From: Nemertoderma westbladi
Taxonomy: Eukaryota; Animalia; Xenacoelomorpha
NCBI GenBank assembly: GCA_032718475.1
Contig: JAUCBJ010001230.1
Location: 1 to 43,349, forward strand
Direction: 5' to 3'
Length of the DNA stretch: 43,349 nucleotides
Shown: positions 5,615-43,349 of the stretch, piece by piece
Position numbering within the stretch: the stretch's first letter is position 1
How the letters are laid out: each line of letters begins with the position of its first letter
Translations under genes and position numbers: made by a program
The notes under the pieces: generated by a model
Told to the model about the DNA's origin: nothing
What the model saw: the letters and a program-made list of their open reading frames with translations, nothing else
Database searches by the model: none

Positions 5615-7618
5615 TAGGGCTCAACAGAAGCTTCGGCTTCGGTTCGGTTCGGGCCGAAGTTTGGCAATTTCGGTTCGGTTCGGCTTCTGCAATTGATACA
5701 GCAGAAGCCCGGAGCAAACTTTGCTAAATATTCCAAGTATTACATTGACTGATTGAGCTAAGACCAGAAGACAGTAAGACTAAATCAATCTGTCCATCGT
5801 TGTACTAATTAATTTTGGAGTGTAAACTTTAAGCAGACTCTGGTGCAGAGCAGACAGTGGTGCAGACAATGGTGCAGACATTGATGCAGACAGTGGTGCA
5901 GACACCTGGTGCAGACAGTGGTGCACGCAGTGGTGCAGAGAGTGGTGCAGATAGTGGTGCAGGCATTGGTGCAGACAGTGGTGCAGACAGTGGTGCAGAC
6001 ACTAGTGCAGACACTGGTGCAGACACTGGTGCAGACAGTTGAGCAGACAGTGGTGCAGACACCTGTTGCAGACACTGGTGCAGACACTGGTGCAGACATT
6101 GGTGCAGAGACAGTGTTGCAGACAGTGGTGCAGACACTGGCACTGGTGCAGACAGTAAAGGGGCGAGCAGGTTAGTAAAGGAGCAGGTTTCAGAGGAGTA
6201 TTGGGGGAACCAAAACAATAAACGTTATTGTTTTGCGGGCTAAGAATACCCAAGCTGCCAAGGGCCAAGAATACTCGCAGGCTAAGAATTCCTGACACCT
6301 TACTGTAGTTAGTGAATGTATATCCCCAGCATGAGACAATAACTTAATGAGCTCGTTTTATTATACAGTAATAAGCAGTGGCTCCAGTAAAGGTAAACAA
6401 ATTAAACATACTCTGTATAAAGTAAGTCATGCAAAAACAATCAAACACTGTCGCTTAAACCTAATCCCCTTTGAGACATTGCTGCTTACAATTTATAGAC
6501 ATTATTGTTAATATGAAAACGGGAATACCGATTAATTACTTTCGTACACACCTCTTATAATTATTTGTAACCAGGGCACATTCACCCGCACGCACCCCGA
6601 CTTGTACTACATACGTCCTCCCTACTTCATGTAGAACCTTTCAGTAGTTACTCGCATATTTGTAGATAATGAAGTCTATGATAAAATATAATATAATTGT
6701 GCCTGGTGGTATTGTGTTTCGTGGTACTCTGGTATTTTCACTCAGGTGTCTGCACCACTGTCTGCACCAGTGTCTACACCACTGTCTGCACCAGTGTCTA
6801 CACCACTGTCTGCACCTCTGTCTGCACCACTGTCCGCATCAGGTGTCTGCACCACTGTCTGCACCAGTGTCTTCACCACTGTCTGCACCAATGTCTGCAC
6901 CACTGTCTGCACGCTGCTCCACTGTCTGCACCACTGGCCGCACCAGGTGGCTGCACCACTGTCTGCACCACTGTCTGCTTAACGTTTACACCCTTAATTT
7001 TGGACTGAACTTCCATTTAAAGGGCATTTTTTTTTAAATGTTTCCAGGTTACTTGGGTAGTTTCAAAATTAGCTTAATTATACAGTAGTTTAGGTTAGGC
7101 TAAATATTGCCATTTTACTTTGTAGTACCCTATTTTTTAATTAATCATAACTTTGATACATAATACCAAATATACCTACTAGCTACTACCTCATATAAAT
7201 AGTATTACAAAGACTACCTGTACTTTTAGTGAGATTTTCTAAATTTGACGTCACTACTGTATGGCTTACTACGGGTGAAAATGTGGTGCATACAGTACTG
7301 CAGTACGTGCATGCATACTGGCATACAGTAAGTATACAGTAGTTTAGGTTAGTAATGTACAGTATGTAAATAGTGCCATTTTATTTTGTAATATTTATTT
7401 TTTTAATTAATCATTAGCTTTCTCGATAAGTCCGCAGACCAAATAGGTACCAGTCTGCCACTGCCAGTCAGCCAGTATAGTGACGTAAATACGAATTTAT
7501 GACCATAACTTGCTAACTTTCTGAACTTCGGTTCGGATTCGGTTCGGTTCGGCCCGAAGTTGGCCCTGCTTCGGTTCGGTTCGGTTCGGCCCCATAAAGT
7601 GCCTTCTGTTGAACCCTA
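5615..7618. mobile_element. Non-autonomous hAT (Ac-like) element
   Basis: 16-bp TIR TAGGGCTCAACAGAAG / CTTCTGTTGAACCCTA with 1 mismatch. Perfect 8-bp TSD CTCCCTAC at 5607-5614 and 7619-7626. (TTCGG)n subterminal repeats at both ends. Confidence 0.9.
5818..6993. mobile_element. Mutator-like foldback element with 12-bp tandem repeats (GGTGCAGACAGT) in inverted arms, nested in the hAT element
   Basis: Ends GAGTGTAAACTTTAAGCAGAC / GTCTGCTTAACGTTTACACCC. 9-bp TSD TTAATTTTG at 5809-5817 and 6994-7002. Repeat arrays at ~5835-6155 and ~6745-6978 are in opposite orientation. Confidence 0.85.
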
Positions 7619-8949
7619 CTCCCTACGCTCGCATATTATTGTTAAAATAAAATATAGGGCTACAATACAGCATTGTAAACTGATCAATTATTAGGCTACA
7701 ATTCAGCAATTACTGCAAACAGGCAAAATTGCAGTCAATTGTTGGCTTGGCAGCTTGGTGCGCATTGGATATGATGGCTGGCGCGATTTTTCGTTTAACC
7801 AGAACGTGTGTGGCGCGCTTTTTGTCAGTATTCCATATAGGGTGCACGTGACATTGTTCAACCTTTTCTGTACCTAAGAAAATTGGTGAAGGTCGGAGTA
7901 CCGGCTGACCGGTACTTTCTTCTTGAAGGAGGAAGAAGAATACCTACCCGTACCGGTAGAAGAAATTTGTATTTCATTTAGCGAATTGGGCTTCCAACTG
8001 GATAAAAAGGAATTTCTAGATCTTGTTCGTGATTATACCCAGAAGTTAGGTAAGGGTAGCCCAGGCCAGGTTGCAAGTCGTGTCGTGTCGACCAGGAGAA
8101 GACTGGTATCGGAATTTCATGGCCAGATGGAAATCCAAGATATCTTGGAGGAAACCGGAGATGCTGATACTTAATCGTCCATTATCGTGTAATGCAGTAC
8201 AGCAGTAATGTGAAAGTTGTCAATGCTTGGTTTTCTCTGTGGAATGACACACTTAACGGAACGGTTAGACTTATTTGTGAAGCCAGCCCAGAGTTTAAAT
8301 TGATGATGAGGGTGGTCTCAGCACTGACTGGCTCTTATCACGTGCTGACGTGTGGCTAAGTTACACGAATAGTTCCCAAAACAGCAAAAGGCACTTTGGC
8401 ATTTCAGCATTTTGGAATTTTTTCCAGGTAGGCCTACCTAAATAATTGCAACCAGCATAAATGCCAAAATGCCAGAGTGCTTTTGGGGAACTGTAGTATA
8501 CATCCTTAAGAGTTCCCGAAAGGCACTTTGGCATTTAATTGTAAATCATTATTAGTGATGATATTACTACATTATACAGTACTGCAATAGGTACGCCTAC
8601 GCCTAAGTGTCTGAGTGTGCATAGCATAGTAACAATTGTAATTGTAATAGACACTCCAAATAACTGCACGACAAGTAAAAATGCATATAACTAACTGCCA
8701 GACTGCAGGCATAAAATATAATATAAATAAATGTGTTGGCAAGCTGTATTTTTCGAGGTATTTGTTATTATACATTTATTATAGGAAGGGATCTAGGGGT
8801 CTTAACCTCGAATGATAAGTTTATTTTACCGAAAATAACTTATCTTTTATTGGCGCAATTGTAGGACTAATCCCATCACATGCGTACTTTTTAACTGGGT
8901 ATTGTACAAATTTAGGAATCGCGTAATTTTTCTTGAAATATCTCTCCAA

Positions 8950-8992
8950 ACCACGTACGCGTTTCGACCTTACTGGGTTTCATCAGCGTGGT
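8950..8992 (-). ncRNA. Minimal type I hammerhead ribozyme (A-C mismatch at base of stem II)
   Basis: Minus strand reads ACCACG-CUGAUGA-AACC-CAGUAA-GGUC-GAAA-CGCG-UA-CGUGGU: 6-bp stem I, canonical core, palindromic ACGCGU stem III, GUA cleavage triplet. Confidence 0.85.
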
Positions 8993-9055
8993 GTCGGATT
9001 CGAACCTGGGACCTTGAGTTGGAAGCCGAGACTACAACCACTAGGCCACAGGTTC
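8988..9055 (-). promoter_or_regulatory. tRNA-derived Pol III promoter segment (A and B boxes), inverted copy
   Basis: Reverse complement contains TGGCCTAGTGG, a CTTCCAA anticodon-like loop and GGTTCGAATCC. Confidence 0.75.
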
Positions 9056-9437
9056 TTGAGATATGGAGTATTAATTCCAAAGCCAGCTGCCATTTTATTA
9101 GCCCCTGATTTTTATTATTGATAGTAACAATGTGTTGGCAAGCTGTATTTTTCGACCAAAAAATTACGCAATTCCTAAATTTCTACAATACCCGGTTAAA
9201 AAGTACTCATGTGATGGGATTAGTCCTACAATTGCGCCAATAAAAGATAAAAAAGTTATTTTCGGTAAAATAAACTTATCATTCGAGGTTAAGATCCCTA
9301 GATCCCTTCCTATAATAAATGTATAATAACAAATACCTCGAAAAATACAGCTTGCCAACACATTGTTACTATCAATAATAAAAATCAGGGGCTAATAAAA
9401 TGGCAGCTGGCTTTGAAATTAATACTCCATATCTCAA

Positions 9438-9505
9438 GAACCTGTGGCCTAGTGGTTGTAGTCTCGGCTTCCACCTCGAGGTCCCAGGTTCGAATCCGAC
9501 ACCAC
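9438..9505 (+). promoter_or_regulatory. tRNA-derived Pol III promoter segment (A and B boxes)
   Basis: A box TGGCCTAGTGG at 9445-9455 and B box GGTTCGAATCC at 9487-9497. Ends in ...CACCA, which overlaps hammerhead stem I. Confidence 0.75.
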
Positions 9506-9558
9506 GCTGATGAGACCCAGTAAGGTCGAAACGCGTACCGGCTGACCGGGTACGTGGT
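9501..9558 (+). ncRNA. Minimal type I hammerhead ribozyme, disrupted by a 15-bp insertion at the cleavage site
   Basis: ACCACG-CTGATGA-GACC-CAGTAA-GGTC-GAAA-CGCG-TA-[CCGGCTGACCGGGTA]-CGTGGT. Confidence 0.8.
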
Positions 9559-11322
9559 TTGGAGAGATAGGCCTATGAGATATTAATTTCAAAAAAAAAT
9601 TACGCGATTCCTAAATTTGTACAATACCCAGTTAAAAAGTACGCATGTGATGGGATTAGTCCTACAATCTGACAATTGCGCCAATAAAAGATAAGCTATT
9701 TTCGGTAAAGAGGTTAAGACCCCTAGATCCCTCCCTTCCTATAATAAATGCATAGCATAGTACTGTAGTAAGCATAGTTTAGTTCCCCATCTCAGTCTGT
9801 CAGTGGGTGTACGATTAAATTAAATTAAAGCATACTACCTAGTATTAGCTTGATTGAACATGCTTAAATATGAAATGAATTACACCGCGCAATTGTAGGC
9901 CTCAGTCATCTATCAGTCTATTTAATGTAAATCTTTAATAAAAAAGTTTTTCTAAAACGTTCCAGATTATAATATGAAACATTTACATTTGTACGTATAT
10001 TACGTACGGTATTACATTTGTATTATATACAATAATATTGTCGCTCCATTCATTTAAATTATGTTTATTCCTTTATTATTACGTCACGTGAACGTGAAGT
10101 AAACAAAATTGCACCCTAACACCATGTATTAGTAATTTTAATGAAATGAAATGTAATATAGGTAGATTTTGAGAGTCAGGATCAGGGAAGGGAAACGGAA
10201 AGGCTAGCTAAGCTAATTAGCAGAGCTAGTAGACTCTAATTGGGAATCTTGGAAACTATTCGTGTGACTTAGCCACACGTCTCTTATCTGCATAGGTGGA
10301 GCGAAGAATCCTGTTAATATAATTCCAGGTTCAGGAAAAGCACAGTATATTGTATTAGCAACGTCGTCAGCCAGTGGAAAGAATTACCCACCATTTGTTG
10401 TGTACTCTGCAAATAATTTGTACCGTGAGTGGGTTGAGAATGGCCCCGAGGGTGCATTGTACCTGTACGGTGTGACGACAAGTGCAGAAATGGTTGGATG
10501 GAAACAACAATCTTTCAGGAATATTTCAAGAAGCTAAGTGAGTGGGTTGGGGATCTTCGGGCATCTTCCCAGACCAATTCTACTGATATTCCATGGCCAG
10601 ATGAGCCATGTATCATTTGATACCGTTGAAATGGCCATTAAGAATTCCATCGTTATTCTGTGCTTACCAGGGCACTGCTTCCATTTATTGCAGCCATTGG
10701 ATGTGGGGGTATTTAAACAAGCGAAGTCTGCTAGGAGGACATTTCTGGTCAATTGGTACAAAGAGTCGCGACTAAAGTCAGTTTCAAAAACTGTCGTTCC
10801 AACACTGCTGAAGAAACTATTCTCGAGTGTTTAAATCAAGCCATATCGTATCAAGCTTTGGTAAAGGTGGCATATTTCCTTATGACCCATCTGCCATTGC
10901 TCATGAGAAGTTGCTGCCAGCTGAGACATTCGAAAGGGACGGAGTTACTTTGCTTGGATCTCTGCCATTGGAAACCCCAACAACTGTTCAGCCATCATCT
11001 GGCTCTGTGGATCAATCTTCTGATTGTCATCATCATGACAATGTATGTTATCTAGTATATACTCCTGTTCATGGAACATTGTCTGTCACCATCAAATATA
11101 CAACCAGCAGCTAATAGTAACACCAGTACTCCTGTTTCTAGAACATTGTCTCCTAACCACCCAACGTACAACCAGTAATACTCCCTGCTAATAGAACATT
11201 GTCACCACCCGATGTCTACATATAACCAGCCGCTAATACTCCTGTTCCAGTAGTTACAATACAATATAATTGAAACTCATATGAAGTCTACCCAGAGAGA
11301 CGTCCGTCAACGAAGACCCCGA

Positions 11323-11896
11323 CTACTACTAGGATCGGCATGCTGCATTGCAGCTGCATTTTTCAAGAATCATGTGCCGGCTTGTCGACAAAATTGCGCC
11401 GCCACAACTCCCTATCATCCATAACATTTGCTAGATCATCCGCATCTTCAAGGCCTCTGTCCTTTAAGATGCGTCTCAAAAAACTCATGCGCTGTCCACC
11501 ATGCTTATTCACTCCATGAGGCTTCCAAAGCACAAGATTATTCACTGACTGGTCCTCACGGCGAAAGCAAATTCCTGCAAAGTGGGGGCGGCTTCGTTCT
11601 AGTGTAAAGCTTGGGGGAACCAATGAGACACTTCCAATGTTATATAGTGTCTGGTTGGAGATGTGTGCATTGTACTTGACACAGACAAGTGATAGTGAAC
11701 CCAGCGTAGCATTCTTGTGAATATGACATCCAGAGATTTGGTGTCATTAGCAGTTAGAGCCCACAGCATGGACTGCCATAGAGGAGTACTGGAACTACTG
11801 CTGCTCTAAATAATCGGACCTTAAGTTTCCAATTAATTCTGTGTGCCTTCCAAATCCTGGAAAGCCTATTCAAGGCTGCCCATTGCCTTTCCCCTT
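11323..11896 (-). mobile_element. 5'-truncated RTE-like LINE
   Basis: ORF 11363-11623 (RPHFAGICFRREDQ..LWKPHG..HGGQRMSFLRRILKD) is near-identical to 25051-25335. (GTA)n tail. Candidate TSD ACCCCGA at 11316-11322 and 11897-11903. Confidence 0.85.
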
Positions 11897-13541: not shown

Positions 13542-13827
13542 GGGTTCCACCTTGGTGTAGTGGTTGCATTGAATTCACATCTCCTGTAGGTCGTGGGTTC
13601 GATCCTTACATGGGCCAGGGCAGTTTTCGTTTCGGCACGAATGCTTTAAAGGGACCAGCCAGGGCGCATCTCTGCCTTGCATCCTTAAGTGGTAGCTAAA
13701 TGAGTACTAGAGTTTCCTCTGGGGAGTAAAGTTCTGGGGGGACCGCACTGGAAATAAGTCGTCAGACTTTGTGCGTAATCCCTGGCCTAGCGGCCGAAGA
13801 AAATTTACTTTACTTTTACTTTACTTT
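13542..13827 (+). mobile_element. tRNA-derived SINE with a Deu/Nin-like central domain
   Basis: A box TGGTGTAGTGG at 13553-13563 and B box GGTTCGATCC at 13596-13605. GCCTTGCATCCTTAAGTGGTAGCTAAATGAGTAC resembles the Deu/Nin core as I recall it. (TTTAC)n tail. Confidence 0.75.
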
Positions 13828-14298: not shown

Positions 14299-16386
14299 AT
14301 GATGGCGAATCATCACGACCGATGGGAGTACGACAGCGGAGCGCGGGACCTCAGTCCGGAACCGCACACCCTGCAGAAACTAATCGAGGCCGCAGTGAAG
14401 TCAATGAACCCGAGCGGAGGAGGTGGGGTCCCTGTAACTGCGGGGCAAAGCTTCCTAGAGCTCGCCAACACACTCCATCTAGCAGCGATGACGTCACTGA
14501 AAGGGGAACTCCGCGAGAAAAGCGACAGATTGGAGCACGTCGTCAAAGACAGAGACTCGTTGGAACGGAAACTCAGTAAATACCAGGCGGATAAGTTGCG
14601 GCATTTACACGATTACAAGGATAGATTGGAGCAACAAAGTCAACGTTACGAAGAAAGAATAACCGAGTTGCACAGCGTGATAGCCGAGTTGCAGAAGAAA
14701 CTGGACTCGTACGAGAGAAACACTTTCCGAGAGGAGGACGAGTTCAACGAGGAACGCGAGAGCGCGAGTAACGAGTCCGTGGACGACAACATTAGCGAGA
14801 GTGCGGACGGGGACCGGAGTTCTAGGAGGGTCGATGATACGGATACCGGATCGGAAACCCACGCACTCCAGGTCCTAAAGGAGTTCGAAGCCGTCAATCT
14901 CAGCGTTACAACCAACAACCTGAACGAGAGAATCGACGAGTTAGAGAGGGAAGTCGACGGGGAGAAGGAGAACAACGAGAAACTGTTGGCGCAGCTGCGT
15001 CATTCGCAGGCGGAATCGCATCGCTTGCGCAACCTCGCGCAGGGGTTGCGCGTCGAAAGAGACCGTCTGATGCGTCGCAACAAGTCGACGAGTTCCGACG
15101 AGGTGGGCCCGTACTCACCGACTCCGCCCGGATCGGAGTCGGATTCTGGAGCGGCGGCGGCGTCCGAGATGGAACTCGAGTTGGACCGACTCCGGACTCG
15201 CTGCGACCATCTCGCCTCCCAGAATGACGTGCTCATGATGACGCTGGACGAGAGCAAGACGCACGCGAACCGGCTCACTATGCTCATCGGTAAGTACGAG
15301 AGCAACAACACCGCGTTGAGACTGGCCATGGAGTACGCGGACCAGGTTATCGAATCGCTCGAGGTTCTACTGCTGTTGGACGAGACGACGGACGACGTGA
15401 TGAACTCCGGGCTGGAGGACGGCGAGTCAACGCGACTTCGCCGGGCCCACGAGAACCGCAAAGCCGCGGAGAACATCGCCAAGTCGCTGCTCCTCTCGCT
15501 GGATCGGTGTTGCGGCGCTGCGAACGCAGCCGCAGCCGCGGCGACAACGATCGCGCAACCGTGGGAGGAGCTGAGCGGGACAACCTCAACGACTTCCTCC
15601 ACGGCGTCCTCCAGCTGCGACTCGGAGTTCTCCAAACTCGACAAAACCCGACTCAAAGAGTACGTCCGCCAACTGAAGCAGGACCGCGCGGCTATACGGC
15701 TCACCATCGTCGAGTTGGAGTCGGTTTACGTCGACTTGGATTCCGCCGAGATCTCACCACGGCACCAGCGGTGGGACTTAGAGAACGCGGTGCTCGGACA
15801 GGAGCTAGCCGCCGTGAAGGAAGACAACGCCGAGTTGCGGAGTCGCTTCTTCCTATTGGAGAAGGAGAAGAAACATCTGGAGACGCGAGTTGGTTCGCAG
15901 TCAGCCCAACAGGCGGCCTACCGCGCACAGATCCTCCATCTAAAGTCCTCGGGTTCCCTTGGCGACGGATCCACCGCGCTCGGAGGGACCCCAGTTATCA
16001 CGCTCGAGGAACTCAAGGCCCCCACCGCGGCCGAGCTCCCGCGGGACCTCGCGGAGGCGGCCCAGCGCGAGCAACACTACAGACTGCGGATCCACGAACT
16101 GGCCGAAGCCTTGGAGCATCTGTCCCGCAACTCCGAGTTGCATCACCAGCAGAGTGCGGACCTCGTCGCCGAGTTGAAGAAAGCGAACGGGGCGTTGGTC
16201 GCCGCCTACGAGAAAGCCAAGAAGAAGCACGGAGGCAGGTTAAAGAAACTCGAGAGTCAGATGAAGATAATGTGCGACCGACACGAGACTACGGTGCGGA
16301 TGCTGAAACAACAGATTCATCTGATGGAGGAAGAGAACTCGCAACTCCATCGCTCCCATCGGAAACACAACGAAACCACACTGTAA
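14299..16386 (+). CDS. MCC: Colorectal mutant cancer protein (MCC) orthologue, coiled-coil protein, 695 aa, uninterrupted ORF
   Basis: MCC-specific blocks YEERITELHSVIAEL; HLASQNDVLMMTLDESK..IGKYESNNTALRLA; QPWEELS..TTSSTASSSCDSEF; DLENAVLGQEL..LLEKEKK; LKKANGALVAAYEKAKKKH. C-terminal class I PDZ-binding motif ETTL (human ETSL). Confidence 0.95.
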   Translation: MMANHHDRWEYDSGARDLSPEPHTLQKLIEAAVKSMNPSGGGGVPVTAGQSFLELANTLHLAAMTSLKGELREKSDRLEHVVKDRDSLERKLSKYQADKLRHLHDYKDRLEQQSQRYEERITELHSVIAELQKKLDSYERNTFREEDEFNEERESASNESVDDNISESADGDRSSRRVDDTDTGSETHALQVLKEFEAVNLSVTTNNLNERIDELEREVDGEKENNEKLLAQLRHSQAESHRLRNLAQGLRVERDRLMRRNKSTSSDEVGPYSPTPPGSESDSGAAAASEMELELDRLRTRCDHLASQNDVLMMTLDESKTHANRLTMLIGKYESNNTALRLAMEYADQVIESLEVLLLLDETTDDVMNSGLEDGESTRLRRAHENRKAAENIAKSLLLSLDRCCGAANAAAAAATTIAQPWEELSGTTSTTSSTASSSCDSEFSKLDKTRLKEYVRQLKQDRAAIRLTIVELESVYVDLDSAEISPRHQRWDLENAVLGQELAAVKEDNAELRSRFFLLEKEKKHLETRVGSQSAQQAAYRAQILHLKSSGSLGDGSTALGGTPVITLEELKAPTAAELPRDLAEAAQREQHYRLRIHELAEALEHLSRNSELHHQQSADLVAELKKANGALVAAYEKAKKKHGGRLKKLESQMKIMCDRHETTVRMLKQQIHLMEEENSQLHRSHRKHNETTL

Positions 16387-17685
16387 GTCCCAAGTTCAGT
16401 CTCAGTTAAGTCTCAATGTTTAGTTTAATTCGTATGATATTGACAATCGCAATGTATTTCCTTTGTATATAATTGAATATGATTGAGCTTTTTTTAGGTG
16501 CTTCCACTTTTTATTTATTCTAGATAGCATTCATTAATATCAATTATGACGATACGTTATATACTTACGGTATTATTATGTACTTAATTTAATATTTATA
16601 AGTCTTTGGTAGTAATTACTGCAATTTTGCACTACAATTTATGTAATAATTGTATTGTAACTCTTTTGGTTATTATTGGATTAGTTGAAGTCTACGTACC
16701 TACTAGTTTTAAATTAGTATTAATTAATGTAATAATTACCGGTATAAGTACTTTTTATGCACATTACGGTTATTTTATCATGGGTTTCTTAAATCGAGAC
16801 AATTCCATTGCTAGTTGATTTTTGTTCGTTGGATTTTTTACTTTGAAGGCAAAATCTGAAATATCCCTTTTTTGTTTAAAAACAAATTCCTTACGTCATC
16901 ATCGGTTTAAATTATCCCAGGTTAAGTAATAGTTGGTTTGGTAAGACCTGACCAAGACAACATACAACTCTTTTAAACATCGTTGATATCTAATACGATT
17001 CGTAGGATTAGTAAAACCTGCCTGGAATGAATTTGCTTTCTTTGAATTTTATTTAATTTTAACTAAATATCAATTTCTTTGGTAAAGCAATGCGGAAAAT
17101 GTGTACAGTAAACTGTACAGTACTGTAACTGTACAGTTCTGTACAGTAAACTGTAGCCTATCCCGGGCGGGGGGGGGGGGGGGGGGGGTGTGTCTGTGGG
17201 CTCTTCGCATCTGTTTTCGAAGACGTTTCGTCTTTATACTATCAGCAGGATCAGTGTGATTCTCAGATAAATCCCTCACTACCTTGGGTAATAATATTCA
17301 GCTCGTGTCATTAAAATCTTAAACTCTTATTGTAAATAATCAATTCCTGTGGCGTGTATAAAGAGATAGTGGTGATGGATTTATATGGCAGCCAACAGAC
17401 ATGTATTGCCTGGGGGTCTGTGGGGGAGAGTTAGTGCATCTATTTACACAATTCGCGTACCTTGTTGCCATCTCGAACCTGAAAATTTGTTTTAATTCTG
17501 TCTGGAACTTTGTACTTTGTGTAATAGGCCGACATAACTACTTAATTTGATATGTTCAGCATCTCAGCTGTTATTAGTCTGGTAATAACGTTAGCCACAT
17601 TAAGATGTATTGTTCCAGGAAACGCCCAGGTGTGGTGTGGCCTCGCTTAGAATGGTTGAAACACAAACAGTAATCGTCATTCATG

Positions 17686-19047
17686 TGCGGCCTTGGTGAA
17701 TGGTTGGGTACGGCCGTGGTGAATGGTTGGGTGCGGCCTTTGTGAATGGTTGGGTGCGGCCTTGGTGAATGGTTGGGTGCGGCCTTGGTGAATGGTTGGG
17801 TACGGCCGTGGTGAATGGTTGGGTGCGGCCTTTGTGAATGGTTGGGTGCGGCCTTGGTGAATGGTTGGGTGCGGCCTTGGTGAATGGTTGGGTGCGGCCT
17901 TGGTGAATGGTTGGGTGCGGCCTTGGTGAATGGTTGGGTACGGCCGTGGTGAATGGTTGGGTGCGGCCTTTGTGAATGGTTGGGTGCGGCCTTGGTGAAT
18001 GGTTGGGTGCGGCCGTGGTGAATGGTTGGGTGCGGCCTTGGTGAATGGTTGGGTGCGGCCTTGGTGAATGATTGGGTGCGGCCTTGGTGAATGGTTGGGT
18101 ACGGCCGTGGTGAATGGTTGGGTGCGGCCTTTGTGAATGGTTGGGTGCGGCCTTGGTGAATGGTTGGGTGCGGCCGTGGTGAATGGTTGGGTGCGGCCTT
18201 GGTGAATGGTTGGGTGCGGCCTTGGTGAATGGTTGGGTGCGGCCTTGGTGAATGGTTGGGTGCGGCCTTTGTGAATGGTTGGGTGCGGCCTTGGTGAATG
18301 GTTGGGTGCGGCCTTGGTGAATGGTTGGTTACGGCCGTGGTGAATGGTTGGGTGCGCCTTTGTGAATGGTTGGGTGCGGCCGTGGTGAATGGATGGGTGC
18401 GGCCGTGGTGAATGGTTGGGTGCGGCCGTGGTGAATGGTTGGGTGCGGCCTTGGTGAATGGTTGAGTACGGCCGTGGTGAATGGTTGGGTACGGCCGTGG
18501 TGAATGGTTGGGTGCGGCCTTGGTGAATGGTTGGGTGCGGCCTTGGTGAATGGTTGAGTACGGCCGTGGTGAATGGTTGGGTACGGCCGTGGTGAATGGT
18601 TTGGTGCGGCCTTTGTGAATGGTTGGGTACGGCCGTGGTGAATGGTTGGGTGCTGCCTTGGTGAATGGTTGAGTACGGCCGTGGTGAATGGTTGGGTACG
18701 GCCGTGGTGAATGGTTGGGTGTGGCCTTTGTGAATGGTTGGGTGCGGCCTTGGTGAATGGTTGGGTGCAGCCTTGGTGAATGGTTGGGTGCGGCCTTGGT
18801 GAATGGTTGGGTGCAGCCTTGGTGAATGGTTGGGTACGGCCGTGGTGAATGGTTGGGTGCGGCCGTGGTGAATGGTTGGGTGTGGCCTTTGTGAATGGTT
18901 GGGTGCGGCCTTGGTGAATGGTTGGGTGCGGCCTTGGTGAATGGTTGGGTGCGGCCTTGGTGAATGGTTGGGTGCGGCCTTGGTGAATGGTTGGGTACGG
19001 CCGTGGTGAATGGTTGGGTGCGGCCTTTGTGAATGGTTGGGTGCGGC
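17686..19047. repeat. 23-bp satellite (GTGCGGCCTTGGTGAATGGTTGG), about 59 copies
   Basis: Uninterrupted tandem array with recurring variants TACGGCCGTGG and GCCTTTG. Confidence 0.95.
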
Positions 19048-21373: not shown

Positions 21374-22772
21374 GCCCAATACCACGGTCTCCATGTTGTT
21401 GCGCCCAATACCACGGTCTCCATGTTGTTGCGCCCAATACCACGGTATCCATGTTGTTGCGCCCAATACCACGGTATCCATGTTGTTGCGCCCAATACCA
21501 CGGTCTCCATGTTGTTGCGCCCAATACCACGGTCTCCATGTTGTTGCGGCCAATACCACGGTATCCATGTTGTTGCGCCCAATACCACGGTCTCCATGTT
21601 GTTGCGCCCAATACCACGGTCTCCATGTTGTTGCGCCCAATACCACGGTATCCATGTTGTTGCGCCCAATACCACGGTCTCCATGTTGTTGCGCCCAATA
21701 CCACGGTATCCACGGTCTCCATGTTGTTGCGCCCAATACCACGGTCTCCATGTTGTTGCGCCCAATACCACGGTCTCCATGTTGTTGCGCCCAATACCAC
21801 GGTATCCATGTTGTTGCGCCCAATACCACGGTCTCCATGTTGTTGCGCCCAATACCACGGTATCCACGGTCTCCATGTTGTTGCGCCCAATACCACGGTC
21901 TCCATGTTGTTGCGCCCAATACCACGGTCTCCATGTTGTTGCGCCCAATACCACGGTATCCATGTTGTTGCGCCCAATACCACGGTCTCCATGTTGTTGC
22001 GCCCAATACCACGGTATCCACGGTCTCCATGTTGTTGCGCCCAATACCACGGTCTCCATGTTGTTGCGCCCAATACCACGGTCTCCATGTTGTTGCGCCC
22101 AATACCACGGTCTCCATGTTGTTGCGCCCAATACCACGGTCTCCATGTTGTTGCGCCCAATACCACGGTATCCATGTTGTTGCGCCCAATACCACGGTCT
22201 CCATGTTGTTGCGCCCAATACCACGGTATCCATGTTGTTGCGCCCAATACCACGGTCTCCATGTTGTTGCGCCCAATACCACGGTCTCCATGTTGTTGCG
22301 CCCAATACCACGGTCTCCATGTTGTTGCGCCCAATACCACGGTCTCCATGTTGTTGCGCCCAATACCACGGTCTCCATGTTGTTGCGCCCAATACCACGG
22401 TCTCCATGTTGTTGCGCCCAATACCACGGTATCCATGTTGTTGCGGCCAATACCACGGTATCCACGTTGTTGCGCCCAATACCACGGTATCCATGTTGTT
22501 GCGCCCAATACCACGGTCTCCATGCTGTTGCGCCCAATACCACGGTCTCCATGTTGTTGCGCCCAATACCACGGTCTCCATGTTGTTGCGCCCAATACCA
22601 CGGTCTCCATGTTGTTGCGCCCAATACCACGGTATCCATGTTGTTGCGCCCAATACCACGGTCTCCATGTTGTTGCGCCCAATACCACGGTCTCCATGTT
22701 GTTGCGCCCAATACCACGGTCTCCATGTTGTTGCGCCCAATATCACGGTTACCACGGTCTCCATGTTGTTGC
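21374..22772. repeat. 29-bp satellite (GCCCAATACCACGGTCTCCATGTTGTTGC), about 47 copies
   Basis: Near-perfect tandem array with a C/A variant and occasional 9-bp internal duplication CCACGGTAT. No spacers. Confidence 0.95.
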
Positions 22773-23859: not shown

Positions 23860-25393
23860 CAACATCATGTATCTGTGTCTGGGCTTACAGATATCCCCAT
23901 TGGTAACATCCCTTTGCTGAAATCAAGACTGCAGCTAGGATCAATCGTGCCAGTGGAGTAGATGGCGTTCCCCCTGAGGTTTTTAAAATTCCTGAGTGTT
24001 TGGAGCTCATTCACCCAAATTATTGTGGATATGTATAGAACAAAGAGAGTCCCTAAAGTTGGTCCCAGCCCCAAAGAAGGGCAACCTAACAACCCGTGGA
24101 TCTTTTCGTGGAATCTCGTTAATCTCGATTGCTGCAAAGCTATACAACATAGTTGAGAGACTGTTACGTGGGAACCAAAATGGGTTCCGTAAAGGTCATG
24201 GGACCGTGGAGCCTATTCTGAGACTTACAAGGAGAATCGAAGAGTTATCAATAAAGAAAGACAGACAACTGGCTATTATCTTTGTTGAATTCTTTAAAGC
24301 CTTCGACTCAGTCTCCCGACCACGGATGTTCAGCATACTGGTGGCATCATATGGGATTCCTGAGGAAATTATGGCAGCTATCACATCACTGTACGATGGT
24401 TCCACCACCTTTGTGTCTACCCTCTGCCTTTGTGACAGATCCATTCTAAGTCTTATGGGGAGGGGGGTCCTTCAGGGTGACACACTTGCAGTACTTGCAC
24501 CATTCTTATTCGTAATTGTGGTTGATTATGTTCTACGCATGTCCTTAGACCATCTTAATAAAGATGGGGCGATGGTAACACCCCTACTGACACAAGAAGT
24601 TGAGGAAATCCAGCAAAGTACCTTGCTGGTCTAGACTTTCCTGATGACATAGGGGTACTGTCATAATCACTAGAGGGAGCACAAGGGCTCCTCTGCTCAT
24701 TGGAGCAGGTTGCTTCTAGTGTTGGTCTTTTTGTAACTTCCAAGAAGATCAAAATCATGACAGTGAACCTAGACAGCCCTCAAGAAATGGCTTGCTTGAG
24801 CACGTGGATGACTTCTGATACTTGGGATCATGGATCAGAAAGTCAGACCTTCGGATAGGTAAGGGGAAGGCATATGCAGCGTTAAATAGTGTGTCCAGGA
24901 TTTGGAAGTCTCATAGAATAAAACGGAACCTTAAGGTTCTATTATCTATGGCAGCAGTACCGGTAGTACCAGTACTCTTATAAGGGAGTCCATGCTGGGC
25001 TCTAACTGCAGAGGATACCAACTAAATCTCTGGATGGCACTTTCACAAGAATGCTGCCCCGGGTTCATTGTGTCAAGTACAATGCACACATATTCAATCA
25101 GACTATATACAACATTGGAGGTGTTCTATTAATCTCCCCTAGCTTGCCACTTGAACAGAACCGCCTCCGCTTTGCAGGACATTGCTTCCGCCGTGAGGAT
25201 CAGCCAGAGCATAATCGAGTGCTTTGGCGCCCTCATGGGGCGAATAAGCATGGTGGACAGCCCATGACTTTCTTGAGACGCATCTTAAAGCCATGGCGGC
25301 GCAACTTTGTTGGCAAGCCTGGACAGCATTCTTAATTATGTAATATATATAATGCAGCTCCAATGCAGCATGCCGATCGTAGTAGTAGTAGTA
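23860..25393 (+). mobile_element. 5'-truncated, frameshifted RTE-like non-LTR retrotransposon (reverse transcriptase pseudogene)
   Basis: RT motifs RGISLISIAAKLYN, QNGFRKG, KAFDSVSR, GVLQGDTLA..PFLFVIVVDYVLR, LDFPDD; C-terminal RLRFAGHCFRR; (GTA)n tail. Confidence 0.9.
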
Positions 25394-25489: not shown

Positions 25490-26471
25490 TGGGGTTGTTG
25501 GGGAGCTGTGTGTGATGGGTTTGGGGGAGGGAGCTCAGTGAAGGAGGTGATTGTTGGGGAGCTGTGTGTGATGGCTTGGGGGGGGTGCTCAGTGAAGCGG
25601 GGGATTGTTGGGAGCTGTGTGTGATGGCTTGGGGAGGACGCTCAGTGAAGGAGGGGGTTGTTGGGAGCAGGGTGTGTTGGGTTGGGGGGAGGTTGCTCAG
25701 TGAAGGAAGGGGTTGTGGGGAGCTGTGTGTGATGGCTTGGGGAGGAAGCTTAGTGAAGGAAGGGGTTGTGGGGAGCTGTGTGTGATGGCTTGGGGAGGGA
25801 GCTCAGTGAAGGAGGGGGTTGTTGAGAGCAGGGTGTGTTGGGTTGGGGGGAGGTTGCTCAGTGAAGGAAGGGGTTGTGGGGAGCTGTGTGTGATGGCTTG
25901 GGGAGGAAGCTTAGTGAAGGAAGGGGTTGTGGGGAGCTGTGTGTGATGGCTTGGGGAGGGAGCTCAGTGAAGGAGGGGGTTGTTGGGAGCAGGGTGTGTC
26001 GGCTTGGGGGGGAAGCTCAGTGAAGGAGGCGGTTGTTGGGAGCAGGGTGTGTTGGCTTGGGGAAGAAGCTCAGTGAAGGAGGGGGTTGTTGGGGAGGCTT
26101 GGGGGGGAAGCTCAGTGAAGGAGGATGTTGTTGGGGGGAGCTGTGTGTGATGGCTTGGTGAGGAAGCTCAGTGAAGGAAGAGGTTGTGGAGAGCTGTGTG
26201 TGATGGCTTGGGGAGGAATCTCAGTGAAGGAAGGGGTTGTGGAGAGCTGTGTGTGATGGCTTGGGGAGGAAGCTCAGTGAAGGAAGGGGTTGTGGAGAGC
26301 TGTGTGTGATGGCTTGGGGAGGAAGCTCAGTGAAGGAAGGGGTTGTGGATAGCTGTGTGTGATGGCTTGGGGAGGAAGCTCAGTGAAGGAAGGGGTTGTG
26401 GATAGCTGTTGTGTGATGGCTTGGGGAGGAAGCTCAGTGAAGGAGGGGGTTGTTGGGCAGCTGTGTGTGAT
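25490..26471. repeat. G-rich ~53-bp minisatellite, about 18 copies
   Basis: GAGCTGTGTGTGATGGCTTGGGGAGGAAGCTCAGTGAAGGAAGGGGTTGTGGA units, most homogeneous at 26190-26450. Confidence 0.9.
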
Positions 26472-31048: not shown

Positions 31049-32590
31049 TTACTCTTGCTCATAAATCCCCGGAAAAAAATACAGCTTTTTCGTTAATATG
31101 TTACCTTGCTCCCCAATCTGTTTGTGTCCAGACACATCTTTTTCAGCCAGTTTACGATTTATTACTGTTGCCATGCTCGCCATATCCTCTACATGGGCTT
31201 TCTCTGCGATCACTTCTACAAGTACCTTGATATACACTGTCCCCAAGCCGCGCCATGAGACATACCCAGGGGTGGTGGAGAACAGCTTGAGAACGTCGCC
31301 GGATACAGGGATCACTCCTCGGGATGGTGCCGCATCCGTCTCATACATGATCGCCGCTGGACTCTCCTTGTCGGTTAAGGCGACTTTGTTAATACCGGAC
31401 GCCAATGCGTTAACCGAATCGGCGTCACCCCCTTCCATGGGGGGAGTGTCGCGAACTGGCGCCTCTTCCACTCCATCCAATCCATCACCTGGACCGTCCA
31501 GAACGCCGAGGTCTTTATCATCTCCTCTACACGCCTGAATGATAAATATCTTGGGTTTTCCGTTTAGATTTGGACAGTTTTGCCCATCGAAACCATCGAC
31601 CAAATGCTGAACCTCGATAAGATAGCCGTCTGTGGTATAGAAGGCACCATGTACTCCGTGAGACATGATACACACGACCGTGCAATCGTAATCCTTGTGC
31701 TGACGGTTTTCCGCGAATCTCTTAATAAGCCGATGGTAATTAACTGCGTTTAGGTTTCGCTCAAGACTCACAGAGAACCCAAGTGCAACAAACAACTTCT
31801 GCAAATTTACGGCGTCCACATCCGAACCCGACCTACTTGTAAGGTTGCGGTTGCTCGGCAAGAAATCCACGAAATTTATGATCAAACAAAGACCTCTCGG
31901 GTTGCTTTTCATCCTGTAAACTTCTTCAGCGTTATCCATCAGCTGACTGCTTTGTTGGGAAGGCCGTATATTCAGTTCTTCAATAAATCCTTCCCCGTTA
32001 AAGGTAATGTGCCCTGGCACCTCATCCCCGGCGGCTTCGCCTTCGTATTTGGATACTTTGACTGGCTTCGGTATGGCGCCGGCCCTGTCACTCGGTCCCC
32101 CATGGTAAAAGGACTGTGGTTGTCCGGATTGCCTGGATGGGCCAGGGGCGTTACCGGCACCAATATAATTCCGACCAGAAACAGGACCGGGACTCGGTTC
32201 ACGTTGCTGTTGCACCGGTATGCTCGGTGTCCGTAATACATTCCCGGGATGCCTGGATTGGGTCACATCGATCGGGTCACGTCTCCCTCTTCCATTGTCA
32301 AGCAGATCTGCAAGGTCATTGTGAATGTTGCTATCGTCCTGTATTGTTCTAAGAATATCACAAAACGTGACGAAATCTTCCTCGCGCTTCCTCTGTAACA
32401 TGTTGATAATTTTGTAGGTTTGTTTCTGTGTCTCTTCGTCATTAATCGCCTTAATCTCCTGGGCTTGGTACTCAGTTAGTATGCCTTGCTCTTCCAATTT
32501 GATTCGAACATTTACGCTGTCCATGTTTTTCATCAATTCCGTCATATTGGATCGGAGGGCTTTCCTGCTGCTCTCAGTTAATAAAACCAT
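31049..32590 (-). CDS. CARD-containing initiator caspase (caspase-2/9-like), ~513 aa, uninterrupted ORF
   Basis: N-terminal CARD-like helical domain. p20 motifs PRGLCLIIN, RSGSDVDA, IMSHG, GKPKIFIIQACRG. p10 motifs STTPGYVSWR, LTKKLYFFPG. Start placed at the ATG at 32590 (MVLLT), which precedes the CARD; the ORF is open further upstream. Confidence 0.93.
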   Translation of the reverse strand: MVLLTESSRKALRSNMTELMKNMDSVNVRIKLEEQGILTEYQAQEIKAINDEETQKQTYKIINMLQRKREEDFVTFCDILRTIQDDSNIHNDLADLLDNGRGRRDPIDVTQSRHPGNVLRTPSIPVQQQREPSPGPVSGRNYIGAGNAPGPSRQSGQPQSFYHGGPSDRAGAIPKPVKVSKYEGEAAGDEVPGHITFNGEGFIEELNIRPSQQSSQLMDNAEEVYRMKSNPRGLCLIINFVDFLPSNRNLTSRSGSDVDAVNLQKLFVALGFSVSLERNLNAVNYHRLIKRFAENRQHKDYDCTVVCIMSHGVHGAFYTTDGYLIEVQHLVDGFDGQNCPNLNGKPKIFIIQACRGDDKDLGVLDGPGDGLDGVEEAPVRDTPPMEGGDADSVNALASGINKVALTDKESPAAIMYETDAAPSRGVIPVSGDVLKLFSTTPGYVSWRGLGTVYIKVLVEVIAEKAHVEDMASMATVINRKLAEKDVSGHKQIGEQGNILTKKLYFFPGIYEQE

Positions 32591-33739: not shown

Positions 33740-36700
33740 TTTGAACGAGGGGTAGGGGATCGCTTGTAACGAGGGGTAGGGGATCGCTTGTAATAAGGGG
33801 TAGGGGATCGCTTGTAACGAGGGGTAGGGGATCGCTTGTAATAAGGGGTAGGGAATCGCTTGTAACGAGGGGTAGGGGATCGCTTGTAACGAGGGGTAGG
33901 GGATCGCTTGTAACGAGGGGTAGGGGATCGCTTGTAACGAGGGGTAGGGGATCGCTTGTAACGAGGGGTAGGGGATTGCTTGTAACGAGGGGTAGGGGAT
34001 CGCTTGTAACGAGGGGTAGGGGATCGCTTGTAACAAGGGGTAGGGGATTGCTTGTAACGAGGGGTAGGGGATCGCTTGTAACGAGGGGTAGGGGATCGCT
34101 TGTAACGAGGGGTAGGGGATTGCTTGTAACAGCCTGTTTTAACGAGGGGTAGGGGATCGCTTGTAACGAGGGGTAGGGGATCGCTTGTAACGAGGGGTAG
34201 GGGATCGCTTGTAACGAGGGGTAGGGGATCGCTTGTAACGAGGGGTATGGGATCGCTTGTAACGAGGGGTAGGGGATTGCTTGTAACAGCCTGTTTTAAC
34301 GAGGGGTAGGGGATCGCTTGTAACGAGGGGTAGGGGATCGCTTGTAACGAGGGGTAGGGGATCGCTTGTAACGAGGGGTAGGGGATTGCTTGTAACAGCC
34401 TGTTTTAACGAGGGGTAGGGGATCGCTTGTAACGAGGGGTAGGGGATCGCTTGTAACGAGGGGTAGGGGATCGCTTGTAACGAGGGGTAGGGGATTGCTT
34501 GTAACAGCCTGTTTTAACGAGGGGTAGGGGATCGCTTGTAACGAGGGGTAGGGGATCGCTTGTAACGAGGGGTAGGGGATCGCTTGTAACGAGGGGTAGG
34601 GGATCGCTTGTAACGAGGGGTAGGGGATCGCTTGTAACGAGGGGTAGGGGATCACTTGTAACGAAGGGTAGGGGATCGCTTGTAACAGCTGTTTTAACGA
34701 GGGGTAGGGGATCGCTTGTAACGAGGGGTAGGGGATCGCTTGTAACGAGTGGTAGGGGATCGCTTGTAACGAAGGGTAGGGGATCGCTTGTAACGAGGGG
34801 TAGGGGATCGCTTGTATCGAGGGGTGGGGATCTCTTGTAACGAGGGGTAGGGGATCGCTTGTAATGAGGGGTAGGGGATCGCTTGTAACGAGGGGTAGGG
34901 GATCGCTTGTAACGAGGGGTAGGGGATCGCTTGTAACGAGGGGTAGGGGATCGCTTTTAACGAGGGGCAGGGGATCCCTTGTAACGAGGGGTAGGGGATC
35001 GCTTGTAACGAGGGGTAGGGGATCCCTTGTAACGAGGGGAGGGGATCGCTTGTAACGAGGGGTAGGGGATCGCTTGTAACAGCTGGTTTTAACGAGGGTT
35101 AGGGGATCGCTTGTAACAGCTGGTTTTAACGAGGGGTAGGGGATCGCTTGTAACAGCCGGTTTTAACGAGGGGTAGGGGATCGCTTTTAACGAGGGGCAG
35201 GGGATCCCTTGTAACGAGGGGTAGGGGATCGCTTGTAACGAGGGGTAGGGGATCTCTTCTAACGAGGGGTAGGGGATCGCTTTTAACGAGGGGCAGGGGA
35301 TCCCTTGTAACGAGGGGTAGGGGATCGCTTGTAACAGCCGGTTTTAACGAGGGGTAGGGGATCGCTTGTAATGAGGGGTAGGGGATCGCTTGTAACGAGG
35401 GGTAGGGGATCGCTTGTAACGAGGGGTAGGGGATCGCTTGTAACGAAGGGTAGGGGATCGCTTTTAACGAGGGGTAGGGGATCGCTTGTAACGAGGGGAG
35501 GGGATCGCTTGTAACAGCCTGTTTAAACGAGGGGTAAGGGGATCGCTTGTAACGAGGGGTAGGGGATCGCTTGTAACGAGGGGAGGGGATCGCTTGTAAC
35601 AGCCTGTTTAAACGAGGGGTAAGGGGATCGCTTGTAACGAGGGGTAGGGGATCGCTTGTAATGAGGGGTAGGGGATCGCTTGTAACGAAGGGTAGGGGAT
35701 CGCTTGTAACAGCTGTTTTAACGAGGGGGAGGGGATCGCTTATAACAGCTGTTTTAACGAGGGGTAGGGGATCGCTTGTAACAGCTGTTTTAACGAGGGG
35801 TAGGGGATCGCTTGTAACAGCTGTTTTAACGAAGGGTAGGGGATCGCTTGTAACAGCTGTTTTAACGAGGTGTAGGGGATCGCTTGTAACAGCTGTTTTA
35901 ACGAGGGGTAGGGGATCGCTTGTAACAGCTGTTTTAACGAGGGGTAGGGGATCGCTTGTAACGAGGGGAGGGGATCGCTTGTAACAGCCTGTTTGAACGC
36001 GGGGTGGGGATTGCTTGTAACAGCTGTTTTAACGAGGGGTAGGGGATCGCTTGTAACGAGGGGTGGGGGATCGCTTGTAACAGCCTGTTTGAACGAGGGG
36101 TAGGGGATCGCTTGTAACGAGGGGTAGGGGATCGCTTGTAACGAGGGGTAGGGGATCGCTTGTAACAGCTGTTTTAACGAAGGGTAGGGGATCGCTTGTA
36201 ACGAGGGGTAGGGGATCGCTTGTAACGAGGGGTAGGGGATCGCTTGTAACGAAGGGTAGGGGATCGCTTGTAACAGCTGTTTTAACGAGGGGTAGGGGAT
36301 CGCTTATAACAGCTGTTTTAACGAGGGGTAGGGGATCGCTTGTAACAGCTGTTTTAACGAGGGGTAGGGGATCGCTTGTAACAAGGGGTAGGGGATCGCT
36401 TATAACAGCCTGTTTTAACGAGGGGTAGGGGATCGCTTGTAACAGCTGTTTTAATGAAGGGTAGGGGATTGCTTGTAACGAGGGGTAGGGGATCGCTTGT
36501 AACAAGGGGCAGGGGATCGCTTGTAACGAGGGGTAGGGGATCGCTTGTAACAGCCTGTTTGAACGAGGGGTAGGGGATCGCTTGTAACGAGGGGTAGGGG
36601 ATCGCTTGTAACGAGGGGTAGGGGATCGCTTGTAACAGCTGTTTTAACGAGGGGTAGGGGATCGCTTGTAACGAGGGGTAGGGGATCGCTTGTAACAGCT

Positions 36701-42700: not shown

Positions 42701-43349
42701 GATCGCTTGTAACGAGGGGTAGGGGATCGCTTGTAACAGCTGTTTTAACGAAGGGTAGGGGATCGCTTGTAACGAGGGGTAGGGGATCGCTTGTAACGAG
42801 GGGTAGGGATCGCTTGTAACGAGGGGTAGGGGATCGCTTGTAACGAGGGGTAGGGGATCGCTTGTAACGAGGGGTAGGGGATCGCTTGTAACAGCCTGTT
42901 TTAACGAGGGGTAGGGGATCGCTTGTAACGAGGGGTAGGGGATCGCTTGTAACGAGGGGTAGGGGATCGCTTGTATCGAGGGGTAGGGGATCGCTTGTAA
43001 CAGCTGTTTTAACGAGGGGTAGGGGATCGCTTGTAACGAGGGGTAGGGGATCGCTTGTAACGAGGGGTAGGGGATCGCTTGTAACGAGGGGTAGGGGATC
43101 GCTTGTAACGAGGGGTAGGGGATCGCTTGTAACGAAGGGGTAGGGGATCGCTTGTAACGAGGGGTAGGGGATCGCTTGTAACGAGGGGTAGGGATGCTTG
43201 TAACGAGGGGTAGGGGATCGCTTGTAACGAGGGGTAGGGGATCGCTTGTAACGAGGGGTAGGGGATCGCTTGTAACAGCTGTTTTAACGAGGGGTAGGGG
43301 ATCGCTTGTAACAGCCTGTTTTAACGAGGGGTAGGGGATCGCTTGTAAC
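33740..43349 (+). repeat. 24-bp G-rich satellite (AACGAGGGGTAGGGGATCGCTTGT) with optional 12- or 13-bp modules, >9.6 kb, runs off the window
   Basis: Continuous array with interspersed AACAGCTGTTTT or AACAGCCTGTTTT insertions. Confidence 0.97.

Follow-up and report, generated by a model that had tools for sequence, protein, structure and literature searches.

Which polymerase transcribes the retrozymes of animals, and which retrotransposon moves them, are questions that the sources drawn on here leave open or answer only by proposal, as far as the parts covered go (PMC7229834; bioRxiv 10.64898/2026.07.22.740005). Both questions are raised by positions 8730 to 9750 of contig JAUCBJ010001230.1 (assembly GCA_032718475.1) of Nemertoderma westbladi, which we analysed as part of a stretch of 43,349 nucleotides (nt), here called the window. 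An initial annotation had described a hybrid of a short interspersed element (SINE) and a retrozyme at this place. We find that the locus is one decayed insertion, in which the element is damaged and mirror-image, and that the family to which it belongs is a young, very high-copy, non-coding tandem repeat. The reading that we favour, with a probability of roughly 60%, is that of a retrozyme without long terminal repeats (a non-LTR retrozyme) built to the design of schistosome Sm-alpha, which would be driven by RNA polymerase III (Pol III) through A and B boxes, would carry a hammerhead that cuts as a dimer, and would be copied in trans by a Penelope-type reverse transcriptase (RT)/GIY-YIG protein. 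This reading starts from features that are seen directly, namely the boxes, the ribozyme motif, an intact family majority, tandem units, an inversion, a one-sided tail and preferred 3' ends. The insertion has the following parts:

8730..9155, minus strand: arm A, 426 nt with its 5' end at 9155, made of one 399-nt unit plus a 27-nt repeat of the unit start, or about 1.07 units (from blastn, alignment and family variants)
9159..9750, plus strand: arm B, a partial tandem of about 1.45 units that crosses one tandem junction and one ribozyme
9148..9163, no strand: head-to-head junction, an imperfect palindrome in which a 5-nt spacer lies between runs of T5 and A6
8730..8772, minus strand: one-sided extension of 39-43 nt that resembles a Penelope "tail", at the 3' end of arm A and absent at the 3' end of arm B
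8618..8631, plus strand: left copy of a 14-nt direct repeat, a probable target-site duplication inside a host repeat
9749..9762, plus strand: right copy of the 14-nt direct repeat, overlapping the 3' end of arm B
8632..8729, no strand: 98 nt of AT-rich other DNA between the left duplication and the 3' end of arm A

The two arms are head-to-head copies of one repeat, and each includes an A box, a B box and a hammerhead that begins 3 nt past the B box. Comparison with family variants indicates that arm A is 11 nt short of the family unit, with the gap at 8938/8939; arm B starts about 36 nt past the ribozyme site of an upstream unit. An insert-free join from 8626 to 9766 is seen in contigs, and the host repeat is uninterrupted there. 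Three rare letters are common to both arms (8760/9334, 8896/9630 and 8902/9624). Thus the arms, which had been taken for two independent local copies, stem from one donor and one insertion. (Note that arm B's first partial unit retains the majority letter at one of these three sites, which faintly favours a multimer of unlike units over a single circle read twice as the template.)

Each arm has a tRNA-like head, and the unit has a short T run downstream:

9438..9497, plus strand: head of arm B, with the A box at 9445-9455, a TCC anticodon-like loop at 9468-9474 and the B box at 9487-9497; the family-majority form
8996..9055, minus strand: head of arm A, with the A box at 9048-9038 and the B box at 9006-8996; private changes at 9015 and 9019
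8832..8835, minus strand: T4 run, the sole one on the sense strand of the unit and a possible leaky Pol III terminator; arm B equivalents at 9259-9262 and 9699-9702

That both arms carry tRNA A and B boxes at this place, as had been claimed, was borne out. A relaxed paired pattern, written from the box consensus motifs, occurred in 4 of 20,000 dinucleotide shuffles of the unit, and a profile built from 63 prokaryotic tRNAs of fetched loci ranked the two heads first in positions 1-33000 of the window (E 4e-4 and 1.2e-3; model positions 4-68). Both boxes are perfect and lie at tRNA-like spacing, with a T8-G53 distance of 43 as compared to 43-47 in the 53 of the 63 tRNAs that could be measured, and no variant of them is listed at 2% or more in the family. 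The Rfam tRNA model did not match either head at E<=10 and ARAGORN found none, which argues that the head is degenerate and is not a tRNA gene. In numbering from the B box, tRNA-like pairing ends at position 62, the acceptor and outer T stems are unpaired, and CCA falls at positions 67-69 and not 74-76, which is 7 nt too early; this register rules out the earlier idea that CACCA is a tRNA 3' end. The description of a Gly(TCC)-like loop is fair for the family, whose loop reads CT-TCC-AC as in arm B, but the final A of arm A's loop is private. Local alignment to the same 63 tRNAs gave tRNA-Gln as the top match (score 61, shuffled maximum 57), and a blastn search of the head against phage returned weak matches in 77 records at E<=10; 24 of the best 30 of these 77 (E 2-8) were annotated as tRNA, the top one being tRNA-Gly at E 2. 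The predicted fold of the head is rod-like, the 7 nt that precede the A box being paired to the B box (z -2.2 in arm B and -2.7 in arm A), so that the last B-box bases would be free for distal helix I of the hammerhead that follows.

The two hammerheads are:

9495..9563, plus strand: type I hammerhead of arm B (Rfam HH9 alignment, fold), with a 15-nt insert at 9538-9552 predicted to pair over the GTA site
8945..8998, minus strand: type I hammerhead of arm A (Rfam Hammerhead_1 alignment), with an intact core, G10.1 changed to A at 8979 and a palindromic ACGCGT helix III

The motif is the type I hammerhead that had been proposed, with CUGAUGA, GACC/GGUC, GAAA and GUA in place. In arm B, stem I is formed by 9501-9506/9553-9558 and is followed by CTGATGA at 9507-9513, a GACC/GGTC stem with a 6-nt loop, GAAAC at 9528-9532 and the GTA site, and distal helix I starts within the last bases of the B box; in arm A the predicted cut lies between 8956 and 8955. 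Rfam matches on 721 nt stayed below the gathering score in both arms, with Hammerhead_HH9 at E 0.0053 in arm B and Hammerhead_1 at E 0.015 in arm A; the check with Infernal/Rfam and a tRNA finder that had been suggested gave these sub-threshold hammerhead matches but no tRNA. A pattern joining the B box to the ribozyme core matched once in the window and not at all in 100 shuffles. Helix I has 6 base pairs (bp) plus a distal helix, helix II has 4 bp, the ACGCGU palindrome forms helix III and the site reads GUA, which, together with the core CUGANGA/GAAA/UH, corresponds to the canonical metazoan type I rather than the minimal hammerhead ribozyme (min-HHR) in the definitions of PMC4209133. There the min-HHR has a helix II of 7-8 bp, a helix I of 4-5 bp, an extra unpaired base before stem II and little or no loop 3; with a 4-bp helix II, a 6-bp helix I and no extra base, the label "minimal" does not fit. 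Helix III resembles that of amphibian ribozymes, in which a palindromic tetraloop caps a one-pair helix and dimers are needed for higher rates (PMC7229834), and the palindrome duplex is computed at -7.5 kcal/mol. The ribozyme is predicted to cut its own RNA after GUA. The predicted circular fold of the unit is moderate (z -2.1).

As the initial annotation had noted, the arms carry different lesions (the A for G at 8979 in arm A and the 15-nt insert in arm B), and the state of the ribozyme in the rest of the family can be read from public contigs. Some of the sequence was present in 7 of the 12 listed runs, from five studies, none recorded as RNA; the run that matches best may be the one from which the window itself derives. 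The further copies that had been expected exist in number: contigs aligned to arm A (436 nt) in four of four runs from three studies, with 3721 in X1, 1991 in X2, 1471 in X3 and 87 in X5, and 2951 of the 3721 X1 contigs showed at least 95% identity. Summed depth was 89,000-504,000 over the element and 16-28 over unique flanks in X1, and 45,000-338,000 and 6-14, respectively, in X3; this excess of about 10^4 is inflated by overlapping contigs and is not a copy number. We read the family as having thousands of copies. The pairing G at 8979, which restores stem II, accounts for 99.8-100% of the depth in three runs, and arm B's insert is not listed at 2% or more in the family contigs. Because the majority sequence has neither local lesion, the family-majority ribozyme is canonical and intact, as had been claimed for the consensus.

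The family unit is 410-411 nt long, as judged from contig variants and a closed-loop contig; the earlier figure of about 399 holds for arm A only. The closed-loop contig, from a further run (X4), is 441 nt long and has a 30-nt self-overlap that leaves a 411-nt unit lacking the arm B insert. (This contig served for unit length and sequence only, since the run type, RNA, is a guess, flank cover is nil and it may represent trace DNA of the most abundant repeat.) A "goes back 400" joint also occurs in family contigs, in which two consecutive intact ribozymes on one molecule were not seen. A pattern scan of other sequences gave 54 loci (48 metagenome, 6 viral), none with similarity to the unit.

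How does this design compare with known systems? Sm-alpha had been offered as a precedent, and the relationship is closer than that word implies: the SINE-like repeats of schistosomes have a promoter followed by a hammerhead, are tandem and apparently Pol III-transcribed, and have the promoter 3'-terminal in transcripts that have been cut, according to the parts drawn on of PMC6765202. The family described here shares with Sm-alpha and Sj-alpha a non-coding tandem unit of a few hundred bases at very high copy number, in which a tRNA-derived Pol III-type promoter stands directly 5' of a type I hammerhead and at the 3' end of the cut monomer. It differs in unit length (410 nt, as compared to 335 bp for a schistosome member with a type I ribozyme; PMC8490949), in its TCC loop (Sm-alpha is tied to tRNA-Gln(TTG); PMC2770079) and in its host, Nemertoderma westbladi and not Schistosoma. 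The MCC-like ORF listed below fits such a host, since matches close to identity would be expected from a schistosome and the best ones listed are at about 50%. Moreover, cleavage has been demonstrated for Sm-alpha and is predicted here, and the likeness that we describe is one of design. The unit also has the features given for non-LTR retrozymes, which are 150-450-bp tandem repeats with a type I hammerhead in each unit, less than 50% G+C and, when present, a target-site duplication of more than 4 bp (PMC7229834): it is multi-copy, has a tandem junction in arm B and a closed-loop contig, a G+C content of 39% (154/399 in the arm A unit) and a 14-nt repeat, with 98 nt unexplained inside it. Metazoan retrozymes have been proposed to be non-autonomous Penelope derivatives (bioRxiv 10.64898/2026.07.22.740005); in contrast to this family, no tRNA-type promoter is mentioned for them in the text searched of that source and of PMC7229834. 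Our literature search, which did not extend to most subscription papers or to Repbase and Dfam, turned up no element of this design beyond schistosomes, and the family may already be catalogued.

The shape of the insertion hints at the likely enzyme. Penelope-like insertions are described as partial tandems with an inverted 5'-truncated copy and a 30-40-bp tail at one end (PMC8557442), and those of Penelope as mostly head-to-head, with palindromic junctions, target-site duplications of 8-10 bp and capture of host DNA (PMC3846280); the tail has been traced to two internal RT starts at AT-rich targets, for one element studied in vitro (PMC11167929). At our one locus we see a partial tandem, an inverted 5' copy and a one-sided tail. 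Loose-end positions in the family contigs were taken from the 24 of 710 rows listed, and among these rows unrelated flanks join the 3' side at 9113/9114 in four runs (10, 17, 9 and 1 contigs), a further 18 and 21 contigs continue beyond 8730 to the same end, and a second 3'-end cluster lies at 8768 (nine contigs, X1), at most 5 nt from the end of arm B. Arm B ends at this second site; the end of arm A lies in AT-rich DNA, 15-16 nt before the first is reached. No 5'-end cluster was found at the head among the rows listed, and the depth just upstream of it resembles that elsewhere in the element. (Candidate 5' ends at the cleavage site, seen as loose ends at 8939 whose sequences part near 8950, may reflect bias from the 11-nt gap of arm A.) The likeness to endonuclease-bearing Penelope-like elements, for which partial tandems with an inverted 5'-truncated copy, a one-sided tail, two preferred 3' ends, AT-rich targets and hammerheads are reported in the portions consulted of PMC8557442, PMC3846280, PMC11167929 and PMC4209133, is not complete: here there is no open reading frame (ORF), the hammerhead is canonical and not minimal, the boxes are of tRNA type, and the 3' ends are about 54 nt apart. 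Such ends are not mentioned for Sm-alpha in the literature compared. From the shape of the insertion it is likely that the element was copied by a Penelope-type enzyme; it would act like Sm-alpha and insert like a Penelope element. The parts and their order are already known, here from another animal lineage.

A life cycle of the following kind would fit the non-LTR retrozyme that we favour. Pol III would initiate at the head of one unit of an array and would have to read through the T4 run and the next unit; two hammerheads would then pair via the ACGCGU palindrome and cut after GUA, which would give monomers of about 410 nt, open to circularisation. As inserted copies extend across intact ribozymes, cleavage would be slow or incomplete. 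A borrowed enzyme would nick AT-rich DNA and begin reverse transcription at internal points that lie roughly 58 and 112 nt upstream of the following head, on a template that is either multimeric or circular; the inverted arm would arise when this template is copied a second time in the opposite orientation. A single transcript begun at the head and fully cut cannot have been the template, given that each arm takes in sequence from upstream of the head and runs across a ribozyme. Since the promoter of a cut monomer would lie near its 3' end, fertility would be limited to arrays, which is also what has been described for Sm-alpha.

Several observations weigh against this account. The T4 run, which had been placed about 130 nt downstream and does lie 131 nt past the ribozyme site in the family (120 nt in arm A) with no variant listed at 2% or more, might halt Pol III before a full unit was made, and T4 runs are not depleted on the sense strand (1 seen, 1.3 expected). 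In minimum-energy folds neither monomer, arm A or arm B, is hammerhead-shaped, and an unconstrained dimer fold of the arm A ribozyme did not yield the active dimer. The conservation of core and boxes is indistinguishable from the youth of the family: only about six sites are polymorphic at 2% or more in X1-X3, and that none of them falls in the core or boxes would occur by chance about half the time, by our estimate. At the ends of the insertion, the 98 nt of AT-rich DNA are foreign to the element, and the spacing of the preferred 3' ends (about 54 nt) exceeds the 30-40-nt tail in print. Finally, the insertion hallmarks support the Penelope-like mobilisation that had been suggested, but the window holds no partner element; its only RT is a LINE-like fragment (LINE, long interspersed element) that has no sequence in common with the unit. 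(A 1831-nt contig of X5, at a depth of 401 and with head and ribozyme at one end, was considered as a partner and rejected; it is a decayed copy, marked as such by altered letters of equal depth at 8984 (core G5) and at 8976 (stem II).)

Of the alternatives, the one that survives best, although we consider it unlikely, is a retrozyme of ordinary Penelope descent that Pol II transcribes from pseudo-LTR or host promoters; the tRNA-like segment would be a captured relic that serves mainly as a hairpin freeing helix I. The head does fold as a rod and not a cloverleaf, the hexamer AATAAA occurs several times on the sense strand of each unit, and copies lack starts at the head among the rows listed. 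In addition, the newt satellite ribozyme repeats appear to be Pol II-dependent in the part of PMC6765202 drawn on, and a T4 in the read-through path would favour Pol II if it stops Pol III, although the T4 counts do not decide. Against this reading, both boxes are perfect and at tRNA spacing and the pairing of the acceptor and outer T stems is gone, which is the pattern expected if promoter function was kept; moreover, the identical layout in Sm-alpha is reported in the same source as Pol III-transcribed.

It is improbable that the family spreads as DNA in the manner of a satellite, by recombination or rolling circle, with ribozyme and boxes out of use. The closed-loop contig and the "goes back 400" joint would suit such a repeat, whereas the dispersed copies, the 3' ends that recur in four runs with flanks joined at one and the same base, and the duplication-bounded insertion in an otherwise uninterrupted host repeat point to retrotransposition. 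Least probable of all is a SINE using a LINE enzyme, with inversion by twin priming and a ribozyme that merely releases the element from longer transcripts: despite the tRNA-like head, the LINE-like RT fragment in the window and a 14-nt duplication that fits LINE-type insertion, the units are tandem and lack a poly(A) or simple-repeat tail, both arms have the same sense with outward-facing 3' ends of one element, no sequence is shared with the LINE pieces, and the 5'-end cluster at the head that marks a classical SINE is absent among the rows listed, with depth continuing upstream.

If the non-LTR retrozyme reading is right, it would show that the Sm-alpha design is not confined to flukes, and the questions of polymerase and mobilising enzyme become testable with a family that is young and near-homogeneous, has perfect A and B boxes and recurrent 3' ends, and keeps its majority ribozyme intact. 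The gain is one of reach and testability and not a new kind of system. Tentatively, tRNA-promoter hammerhead retrozymes may be a recurrent, Penelope-driven class of SINE with independent origins in flukes and in this animal, each from a different tRNA. As part of this broader view we raise, with similar reserve, the idea that the B box doubles as part of ribozyme helix I, so that one 120-nt module would be both promoter and self-cutter. If the class is real, the family would identify both the polymerase and the mobilising enzyme of such animal retrozymes.

The pattern scan also gave an observation of its own. In 12 of the 54 metagenome and viral loci (L008, L009, L051, L010, L011, L013, L014, L015, L025, L026, L029 and L037) a complete type I hammerhead starts a few bases past the CCA of a gene for tRNA-Glu(TTC), at a distance of about 60-130 nt from the match to the pattern; stem I has 5 bp that differ in sequence and still pair, stem III has 4-9 bp, and the site is 49-66 nt on. 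In two tRNA clusters (L005 and L049) stem I takes in the CCA of tRNA-Gln itself. (Note that the scan pattern itself selects this layout and that no null stands behind these counts.) At Rfam gathering thresholds, tRNA-adjacent hammerheads were not called in the loci scanned, 20 of the 54. These arrangements recall the theta ribozymes resembling that of hepatitis delta virus (HDV), which reportedly adjoin phage tRNAs; no hammerhead version of these phage ribozymes was found in the literature searched.

Elsewhere in the window there are other repeats and genes:

13546-13617, plus strand: a further tRNA-like segment with A and B boxes (profile E 0.0066), unrelated to the heads above and probably another SINE head
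23996-24631, plus strand; 25006-25335, plus strand; 11363-11743, minus strand: a LINE-like reverse transcriptase in broken form (RVT_1), with two related 3' pieces that match at 82% in inverted orientation
727-1654: a foldback-like element with long inverted arms of 49-nt tandem subrepeats and a short AT-rich centre
14299-16386, plus strand: an intron-free MCC-like ORF 5 kb from the element, with about 50% identity to hemichordate and lancelet proteins and 48% to those of vertebrates (best 120 of 724 matches)
31049-32587, minus strand: a long intron-free ORF, CARD-caspase
5850-6140, 6742-6978, 17685-19047, 21374-22749, 25491-26471 and 33744-43349: inverted 12-nt repeat arrays and minisatellites (23, 29 and 53 nt)

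A G-rich array with a 24/36-nt period extends over 9.6 kb and reaches the end of the window.

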